8,581 nt of DNA, taken from NCBI GenBank assembly GCA_048939465.1, contig JBHLPL010000083.1, positions 1 through 8,581 on the forward strand. The letters are read 5' to 3'. A program made the translations under genes and the position numbers. This stretch comes from Promethearchaeota archaeon. GTDB taxonomy: Archaea; Asgardarchaeota; Odinarchaeia; Odinarchaeales; JBHLKK01. The notes below the pieces were generated by a model. The model was not told where the DNA came from and did not search any database. It was given only the letters and a program-made list of their open reading frames with translations. Shown here in pieces: positions 7,021 to 7,296 of the stretch (position 1 is the stretch's first letter; every line of letters begins with the position of its first letter).

Positions 7021-7044
7021 AAAGAAAACAGTGAATACAAAAAA
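7021..7044 (-). terminator. Oligo-T terminator candidate downstream of the micro-ORF pair
   Basis: The minus strand reads CC-TTTTTT-GTATTCACTG-TTTTCTTT ~30 nt after the TAA at 7075. Confidence 0.55.
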
Positions 7045-7074
7045 GGCACGAGGAGTACTATTGAATTGCTCTAA

Positions 7075-7134
7075 TTATTTGCATTTCTTCTTTGCTTTTT
7101 CTGTTCCTTCTGGCTTTGCTTTCTTTTTGCCCAT
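7075..7134 (-). CDS. 19-aa Lys-rich micro-protein MGKKKAKPEGTEKAKKKCK
   Basis: ATG at 7134 with SD GAAGGTGAT (7150-7142) 7 nt upstream, the same AGGTGAT as before the flavodoxin. Stop TAA at 7077-7075, followed by a T-tract. Confidence 0.62.
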   Translation of the reverse strand: MGKKKAKPEGTEKAKKKCK

Positions 7135-7176
7135 AGCCGGTATCACCTTCTCTTTTGTCGGTTCTTTTGATCCAAA

Positions 7177-7236
7177 TCACCAATCATCTTCCCAGTCGTC
7201 GTCAAATTCAGCATCTTCATCCCATTCTTCTTCCAT
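7177..7236 (-). CDS. 19-aa acidic Trp-rich micro-protein MEEEWDEDAEFDDDWEDDW (open frame extends upstream to ATG 7353, 58 aa)
   Basis: ATG at 7236 is preceded by the SD-like AGGTGG and a candidate promoter at 7285-7296. 13/19 residues are D/E, with 3 W and 1 F. Stop TGA at 7179-7177. Confidence 0.58.
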   Translation of the reverse strand: MEEEWDEDAEFDDDWEDDW

Positions 7237-7284
7237 TTCTTGCCACCACCTGTATTTGGATTCTTCTAGATAGTAATAATTCAG

Positions 7285-7296
7285 ATTAATGTTTTT
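7285..7296 (-). promoter_or_regulatory. Candidate BRE+TATA promoter for the micro-ORF pair
   Basis: The minus strand reads AAAAAC-ATTAAT, the same A-run/C/AT-box layout as the other promoters in the window, ~50 nt upstream of ATG 7236. Confidence 0.4.

Follow-up and report, generated by a model that had tools for sequence, protein, structure and literature searches.

Two oppositely charged micro-genes in an Asgard archaeon and a putative family of acidic tryptophan micro-proteins in Archaea

Prothymosin-alpha and linker histone H1 are oppositely charged partners that form disordered polyanion-polycation complexes. In eIF3j/Hcr1, an accessory factor of the eukaryotic ABCE1, a Lys-rich segment follows motifs in which Trp is set among acidic residues (W-acidic motifs). 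The N-terminal acidic segment (NTA) of eIF3j binds as an extended acidic peptide to basic helix alpha-1 of a ferredoxin-like RNA recognition motif (RRM), and its conserved Trp occupies a hydrophobic pocket (PMC2824034). The N-terminus of eIF3j also reaches the cleft between nucleotide-binding domains 1 and 2 (NBD1/NBD2) of ABCE1, a patch to which the stalk protein aP1 of Archaea binds with its acidic C-terminal peptide (PMC7780240). Here we describe two micro-genes on the minus strand of an 8,581-nt stretch of DNA from a Promethearchaeota archaeon (contig JBHLPL010000083.1, positions 1 to 8,581; the window). The first encodes a predicted acidic peptide with Trp residues and the second a predicted Lys-rich peptide. 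On comparative grounds, we consider these two open reading frames (ORFs) to be real, conserved, unannotated genes. The reading that we favor, with confidence somewhat better than even, is that they form a free-standing bicistronic micro-gene operon that encodes peptides, and that the acidic peptide is a trans-acting ligand of basic partners.

The micro-peptides resemble several known systems and differ from each of them. Like eIF3j/Hcr1, the acidic peptide has an unstructured Asp/Glu stretch centered on Trp, and relatives of the acidic ORF in the window are encoded directly upstream of ABCE1. In contrast, eIF3j has ~260 amino acids and a helical-bundle dimerization domain, whereas the micro-peptides have 15-33 residues and no fold, and are too short for such a domain. 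In addition, the window copy is not beside ABCE1, and Pfam gave no match to six of the peptides at E<=10, including to eIF3_subunit. We regard the resemblance to eIF3j as an analogy, not as membership. DSS1/Sem1 (PF05160) is also small, disordered and very acidic, has conserved Trp residues, and binds basic grooves of several partners. Unlike the micro-peptides, it has ~70-90 amino acids and a C-terminal helix. Membership in DSS1/Sem1 was not supported: PF05160 matched none of the six peptides (E<=10) and nothing in the whole genome. The window pair has a proteasome beta-subunit gene two genes downstream, and the copy on contig C8 is followed by a Rad51-family gene, a coincidence with the context of DSS1; the neighboring genes are not conserved between copies. 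The KKPAKK-type Lys/Ala/Pro make-up of some of the basic partners resembles the tails of H1. Unlike prothymosin-alpha and H1, the acidic peptides have conserved aromatic anchors and are often encoded without a basic micro-gene, and we saw no link to chromatin genes. Like MgtL-type leaders, which work by intrinsic destabilization of the ribosome, the acidic ORF is short, has an acidic N-terminus and lies upstream of other genes. An MgtL-like leader peptide or attenuator was likewise not supported: no particular gene is constant downstream of the unit, many copies run into a terminator with a convergent gene beyond it, and the peptide is conserved to its last residue.

The window is on contig C3 of a metagenome-assembled genome (MAG) of 1.96 Mb in 152 contigs. 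The micro-gene unit, with its acidic Trp and Lys-rich ORFs, sits in a 710-bp gap between two divergent genes. The unit, its Shine-Dalgarno (SD) sequences, its candidate promoter with a B recognition element (BRE), and the divergent gene are arranged as follows.

7538 to 8314, plus strand: gene for a 258-amino-acid protein with an isoelectric point (pI) of 10.7, divergent from the micro-gene unit and the conserved genomic partner of the acidic micro-gene.
7297 to 7480, minus strand: further upstream blocks, probably regulatory DNA, kept in four paralogous copies and in an orthologue from the same genus.
7279 to 7296, minus strand: candidate BRE/TATA promoter element AAAAACATTAATCTGAAT, the best-conserved upstream block, ~45-55 nt 5' of the ATG.
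7243 to 7251, minus strand: SD-like sequence AGGTGGTGG before the acidic ORF, with AGGTGG at 7251-7246 and GGTGG repeated at 7247-7243.
7177 to 7236, minus strand: acidic Trp micro-gene, from ATG at 7236 to TGA at 7177 (19 codons plus TGA), encoding MEEEWDEDAEFDDDWEDDW, with a C-terminal Trp.
7135 to 7176, minus strand: inter-cistronic spacer of 42 nt without a T-run, with the SD sequence AGGTGAT at 7148-7142.
7075 to 7134, minus strand: Lys-rich micro-gene, from ATG at 7134 to TAA at 7075 (19 codons plus TAA), encoding MGKKKAKPEGTEKAKKKCK.
7039 to 7044, minus strand: T6 run, likely an archaeal transcription stop, 30 nt past the basic ORF, with an additional T-rich stretch at 7021-7030.

By direct reading, 13 of the 19 residues of the acidic peptide are Asp or Glu and none is Lys or Arg; the basic peptide has nine Lys and two Glu. 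The original prediction described two 19-residue, oppositely charged minus-strand ORFs with SD sequences and a 42-nt spacer, and this description was exact. The best-conserved upstream block (7296-7279), common to all of the paralogues, contains the candidate promoter of that prediction (7296-7285), and the predicted oligo-T terminator is the T6 run at 7044-7039, which has T6-T8 counterparts 30-45 nt past the basic ORF in all of the paralogues. A scan for bacterial-type promoters and terminators found nothing specific at the micro-gene unit, as expected because the host is an archaeon. An in-frame ATG farther upstream, at 7353, would extend the acidic ORF to 58 amino acids. This extension is not kept in the paralogues.

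We found that the unit is one of four paralogous copies in the genome. A whole-genome scan gave only six ATG-started micro-ORFs with >=55% Asp/Glu, and four of these are of the Trp type: the window copy on C3, MFKQEEEEEEEDWEEEEEEEEEDW on C8, MFRIEEDWNEEEDWNEEEEEDW on C38, and MFKMEEDWDEEEEDEDWDEEEEDWDEEEEEEDD on C146. In each of the four, a Lys-rich ORF led by an SD sequence begins 42-52 nt past the acidic ORF, and both ORFs are preceded by an SD sequence in every copy. The Lys-rich partners in the paralogues include MGKKKGKAKQKGK... and MSKKKKEGKKKGKKK. The partner is MSKKKKEGKKKGKKK on C38 and MGKKKGKAKQKGKEKPKGQQKK on C146; on C8 it is a probable GTG-started, Lys/Glu-rich ORF, read directly from the sequence. 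The gap on C38 is identical in length (42 nt) to that in the window. The equal length of the two peptides, which had been taken as meaningful, is incidental, as the paralogous acidic peptides have 22-33 residues and the basic ones 15-23.

The four copies also have blocks in common over ~250 nt of upstream DNA. The strongest block in the alignment is AAxAAGATTAATCTGAAT, ~45-55 nt before the ATG. RNAalifold found no consensus RNA structure in this conserved upstream region, and the region thus looks like regulatory DNA. The idea of a repeated GATWAT operator in it was not borne out.

These copies bear on two other possible origins of the ORFs: that they arose by chance in a non-coding RNA or DNA element rich in purines, or that they are what is left of a larger gene after decay. 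The GAA/GAT and AAA/AAG codons are all purine-rich, and the two window ORFs are in one reading frame, separated by a single TGA with no other stop in the 42-nt spacer. We compared the genome to five simulated genomes of equal size made with a third-order Markov model. In this comparison, the real genome contained five ATG-started micro-ORFs with >=55% Asp/Glu and three acidic-to-basic pairs, and the simulated genomes contained no acidic ORFs and no pairs. That is, a chance origin of the micro-ORFs is excluded, and the original claim that the unit is hard to ascribe to chance holds: four genomic copies against none. The shared frame is probably incidental, since the paralogues differ: their gaps are 52 nt (out of frame) or carry extra in-frame stops, so that a read-through fusion is unlikely to be the purpose of the arrangement. 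In addition, the SD sequences are present ahead of both ORFs in every copy, and substitutions between orthologues are biased to the third codon position (below), which speaks against the decayed fragment that the original prediction had named as one possible refutation. Rfam gave no match anywhere in the window, and the upstream region has no consensus RNA structure, both against a non-coding RNA element. Chance or decay is thus largely refuted, and we consider it extremely improbable.

Both ORFs are conserved in relatives. At the C146 locus, the orthologue in a genome of the same genus keeps both ORFs, and its acidic ORF differs by two 6-nt indels. The unit is also present in distant Asgard and Bathyarchaeia genomes; conservation in relatives was a check that the original prediction had proposed. 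We counted substitutions in four orthologous pairs of acidic ORFs that align without gaps, all from other lineages: 22 of 35 were at codon position 3, and the Trp codons were retained. Relatives have GAGGTGA 6-9 nt ahead of the start codon, and Thorarchaeota-type loci have a TATA-like CTTAAT, TTTAAC or CTTAGAT as far upstream as the candidate promoter element of the window. Relatives keep the positions of the Trp residues down to the last codon, including the C-terminal Trp, which is present in 17 of 25 aligned relatives. Some of the peptides are identical between loci: the micro-ORF peptides of L029 and L084, those of L032 and L057, and the basic peptides of L034 and L051.

Genes this short escape annotation. 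Exact look-up of seven relatives in a collection of 15 billion proteins found none of them, and a protein homologue search with a 46-amino-acid relative from Thermococcus gave nothing scoring. A profile of the acidic peptide (29 positions, low complexity) gave one match over 400 genomes of the phylum, and we therefore based the distribution on a DNA pattern and on synteny. In same-genus and same-order genomes, a strict pattern for the C-terminal codons matched only two of the window genome's own copies. We found no published account of a gene pair of this kind in full-text literature searches. We regard the predicted acidic Trp peptides as a widespread, undescribed and unannotated family of archaeal micro-proteins.

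As a working definition, members of this family have 16-60 codons with >=55% Asp/Glu and almost no Lys or Arg in the acidic part, an aromatic residue (Trp or Phe) at intervals of 4-8 residues, and a Trp just before the stop. The window copy has these properties (W5, F11, W15 and W19 before the stop). It also has a strong SD sequence 6-9 nt upstream and its own terminator signal, and, of the two typical neighbors, a ChrB_N-like basic protein or ABCE1, it has the former (the 258-amino-acid gene at 7538). Its N-terminus is MEEEW and not the M-x-F/aromatic type that precedes the acidic run in the family; the remaining three copies in this genome begin MFKQ, MFRI and MFKM.

We scanned one genome per prokaryotic species with a DNA pattern (acidic-Trp...acidic-Trp-stop) and obtained at least 120 stretches, which are a sample and not a census. 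Of the matches listed, 80 are micro-ORFs. Among the matches listed, the named rows are mostly Archaea: Bathyarchaeia; Thorarchaeota, Hermod and Baldr; Desulfurococcales; Sulfolobales; Thermofilaceae; Thermococcus; Methanomethylicia; Nanopusillus; and Nitrososphaerota. The pattern also matched the C-termini of ~150-amino-acid proteins of Bacillaceae (...EEWDEDEEDW; Peribacillus, Ureibacillus and Bacillus; L044, L061, L083, L089 and L106), which are proteins of ordinary length and not micro-ORFs.

We found that the Lys-rich ORF is less widely kept than the acidic one. The two ORFs co-occur in at least five lineages: the genus of the window, two further Asgard genera (one at loci L031 and L036, the other at L012, L014 and L015), Hermod-group Asgard, and Bathyarchaeia. 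Partners that begin MAKKKPAKK... occur in distant Asgard genomes, and look-alikes of them are also present on Thorarchaeota contigs. Most Thorarchaeota-type loci have a monocistronic acidic ORF, followed by a hairpin and T-run that face a convergent gene. No ABCE1-linked locus among the matches listed has a Lys-rich partner. The predicted acidic Trp peptide is thus the conserved core of the family, and the Lys-rich ORF is a lineage-restricted companion.

In some genomes the two kinds of sequence are fused. A single ORF in the third Asgard genus has a run of Lys followed by an acidic Trp tail (MVSKDKKKKEEDDEWEDEDW... at L014; also L015), and a Thermococcus fusion reads MQPPKKKK...EEEEW. The fusions support a functional relation between Lys-rich and acidic Trp sequences, not an obligate two-component system. 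The Thermococcus version has 46-60 amino acids, an M(Q/E)PPKKKK start and an acidic tail ending in Trp (L060:4717-4896, L074:547-684 and L141:7710-7862). It is divergent from an orphan protein of ~270 amino acids, followed by Cdc48, and its exact sequences are absent from the 15-billion-protein collection. On comparison, the 272-amino-acid neighbor in Thermococcus was unrelated to the 258-amino-acid family.

The original prediction proposed a cognate polyanion/polycation pair. Recurrence in at least five lineages and the natural fusions are in favor of a pair; its obligate character did not stand, as the acidic gene is often alone. In the strictest form of this idea, the Lys-rich peptide would be a harmful binder of nucleic acids or membranes and the acidic peptide its antidote, as in toxin-antitoxin or mutually neutralizing systems. 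The opposite charges, the bicistronic layout, the presence of several copies and the co-occurrence in several lineages fit this. But the acidic gene is found much more widely than the basic one and is usually solitary, with no obligate co-occurrence; the gene order is reversible (Hermod-type loci), the basic peptide has no hydrophobic segment, and the neighboring proteins match no PADLOC defense model. Because most Thorarchaeota-type loci and all of the ABCE1-linked loci have the acidic gene without a basic one, strict toxin-antitoxin or mutual-neutralization logic fails for the family. This logic, one of the options originally offered, cannot explain the family, and we think it very unlikely that the window pair works in this way.

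If the acidic peptide is instead a ligand of basic partners, as we favor, a second candidate partner is encoded next to it. The original prediction suggested that the acidic peptide could act on the basic protein encoded divergently at 7538, and conserved synteny strongly supports this link. The protein family is present in 88 of 400 genomes of the phylum, and its pI is 9.9-11.1 in all of the members examined. We examined 29 loci and found that the acidic gene adjoins the homologue in 25. In 20 of the 29 the acidic Trp micro-ORF is divergent, 190-380 nt from the homologue, and in five it is nearby in another arrangement. No acidic micro-ORF was found near the homologue in three loci, and in one the flank was too short to judge. 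The five other arrangements include three loci of one further Asgard genus, in which the genes are co-directional; a Hermod-type locus, also co-directional, with the order homologue, Lys ORF, acidic ORF; and one locus with an acidic ORF that carries Phe/Leu and no Trp. In Bathyarchaeia, a different phylum, a member of the 258-amino-acid family (hhalign probability 99.8%) is upstream of an acidic-plus-basic pair. The window genome and the same-genus genome each have one such gene, 42% identical to each other, and both are divergent from a micro-gene pair, at different paralogous loci. At the CitMHS locus, a ChrB_N-like gene of 270 amino acids is present in the same-genus genome (L002/L009, G002:C35) and absent from the window genome (L005, C146).

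The AlphaFold2 model of the 258-amino-acid protein has a predicted local distance difference test (pLDDT) of 91 and a predicted template modeling score (pTM) of 0.86. It contains two ferredoxin-like modules, the N-terminal one with the order beta-alpha-beta-beta-alpha-beta and the second a Cas2-like module of the ChrB_N/PaaX_M type, and a three-helix bundle; there is no helix-turn-helix in the model. The structure matched ChrB_N clusters (probability 1.0) and Cas2 chains (0.98-0.99), and structural rows in the Atlas were ChrB_N and PaaX_M. Pfam PaaX_M matched the sequences of two of 28 family members (best E 1.1e-4), and the window protein itself had no profile match. The only invariant residues of the family, K98 and R102, are on a basic helix. 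The ligand-responsive ChrB_N/PaaX_M regulators also have a Cas2-like beta-alpha-beta-beta module, in which there are a basic helix and a G-x-x-x-F/L-P strand, and then a helical bundle, and the 258-amino-acid gene is likewise transcribed divergently from its putative target. Unlike these regulators, the protein has no winged-helix DNA-binding domain and no ChrB_C, and has an extra N-terminal ferredoxin-like module. The protein may serve as a receptor, as a regulator of the divergent promoter, or in both capacities. A complex prediction with a 32-amino-acid acidic peptide (L022) and its 268-amino-acid neighbor had a score of 0.00; made without controls, it gave no answer and counts neither way.

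The second typical neighbor is the ribosome-recycling ATPase ABCE1 (~600 amino acids, Fer4_RLI and two ATP-binding cassette (ABC) domains). It is downstream on the same strand in 34 of the 80 listed micro-ORF loci and within 3 kb in any orientation in 38 of the 80; the median distance of this neighbor cluster is 113 nt. A member of the ChrB_N-like family is nearby in 15 of the 80. Among the matches listed, all of the ABCE1-linked loci with a record title shown are from Thermoproteota. In L054, L071, L062, L081, L118 and ~30 others, an acidic Trp micro-ORF (e.g. MVFEEEEEWEEEDWEEEEWEEEEW) is 27-234 nt upstream of ABCE1. This arrangement was found in Bathyarchaeia, Desulfurococcales and Sulfolobales, often with an Asparaginase_2 gene just before the micro-ORF. 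One locus from Thermoproteota (L101:969-4032) joins both contexts: a ChrB_N-like gene (969-1775), an acidic Trp micro-ORF (1980-2099) and ABCE1 (2203-4032) are all on one strand. The ABCE1-linked and ChrB_N-linked groups have an MVF/MF-type (MxF) start, the spacing of Trp and the terminal Trp in common, and their common descent is plausible.

In Thermoproteota the sister genes have a fixed place immediately before ABCE1, and for this reason the family may have a role in translation or ribosome recycling. In a more specific form of this idea, the acidic Trp micro-protein, and the Lys-rich one at loci that encode it, would correspond as free-standing archaeal peptides to the W-acidic/Lys-rich N-terminal arm of eIF3j/Hcr1. 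Such a tiny accessory factor would use the aP1 patch to dock on ABCE1 or the small ribosomal subunit and would tune recycling and re-initiation, and the ChrB_N-like protein would be a second receptor or a regulator. The idea is built on the analogy with eIF3j, and we consider it quite unlikely. If it were true, Archaea, which are thought to lack eIF3, would have a function like that of eIF3j and possibly the evolutionary seed from which eIF3j arose. To our knowledge, Archaea lack eIF3b. The link to ABCE1 and the acidic Trp likeness to eIF3j could bear on the origin of the eukaryotic translation-initiation and recycling apparatus.

It is also possible that the ORFs act only by being translated. 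In this case, translation of the poly-acidic and poly-Lys ORFs would tune read-through of the T-run or re-initiation, in cis, and the peptides would have no role of their own. The targets would be the gene at 6060-6827 (255 amino acids) and the proteasome beta-subunit gene in the window, and ABCE1 or transporters in relatives. According to PMC12673854, N-terminal acidic runs destabilize translating ribosomes, which makes a sensor of this kind attractive for the copies 27-234 nt upstream of the ribosome-splitting factor ABCE1. The unit in the window is upstream of, and on the same strand as, its two proposed targets; the C146 copy and its same-genus orthologue are upstream of a CitMHS transporter gene, and the C38 copy adjoins a divergent GDT1 cation transporter gene. 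In contrast, the genes 3' of the unit differ in all four paralogues, and synteny tracks the upstream divergent gene, not the downstream one. The C38 copy and the units at most Thorarchaeota-type loci terminate at a hairpin or T-run with a convergent gene beyond it, and no cis control is possible there. A pure destabilization sensor would not need the Trp positions and the C-terminal Trp to be kept to the last codon. We consider such a sensor unlikely; if it were correct, it would be the first archaeal sensor based on ribosome destabilization by acidic runs.

We return to the reading that we favor, an operon whose acidic product is a ligand in trans. The order would be promoter, SD, acidic Trp ORF, SD, Lys-rich ORF and T-run, in one of four paralogous copies. 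Both ORFs would be translated into short disordered peptides. By analogy with the known systems, the acidic peptide would act in trans as a polyanionic ligand, with its Trp residues as anchors that dock on basic surfaces. The likely partners here would be the co-encoded Lys-rich peptide, the divergent ChrB_N/PaaX_M-like basic protein, or both, and the latter may also regulate the locus. The ORFs, their conservation, the coding-type pattern of substitutions and the synteny are observed; expression, binding, partners and pathway we infer.

Several points weigh against it. For every copy, transcription and translation are predictions from DNA. The neighboring 258-amino-acid gene is missing at three of the four copies. 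The yield of full peptide could be low, because N-terminal acidic runs destabilize ribosomes. In the window genome ABCE1 directly follows Asparaginase_2, with no acidic ORF between them, and the low complexity of the sequences means that homology of the ChrB_N-linked and ABCE1-linked groups is not provable.

If the peptides are made, they would be a new class of archaeal micro-proteins. The acidic Trp genes span Asgard archaea, Bathyarchaeia, Crenarchaeota-type Thermoproteota and Thermococci, and they have two specific neighbors, a basic ChrB/PaaX-like orphan and the essential ABCE1.

The surroundings of the copies are diverse. On the 3' side of the window unit, on the minus strand, are the orphan gene of 255 amino acids (6060-6827) and then the proteasome beta-subunit gene (5338-5997). 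The orphan had no match in Pfam, PADLOC or the Atlas, and is unrelated to the 202-amino-acid orphan of the Bathyarchaeia loci. The C38 copy (L040) has the divergent GDT1 divalent-cation/proton antiporter gene on one side and a convergent Mrr-like nuclease gene on the other, with an FTR1 iron permease gene nearby. The C8 copy (L039) precedes the Rad51-family gene and is surrounded by 1.7 kb of DNA that has no long ORFs.

Elsewhere in the window, the region 1194-5266 contains genes for an Fe-alcohol dehydrogenase, an aldehyde:ferredoxin oxidoreductase and a flavodoxin, and two SCP2-domain genes, an archaeal-type metabolism. No RNA datasets were listed as carrying the window sequence; the DNA datasets listed were mangrove and sediment metagenomes only. 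A ChsH2-like gene with an oligonucleotide/oligosaccharide-binding (OB) fold and zinc ribbon is at 192-662.

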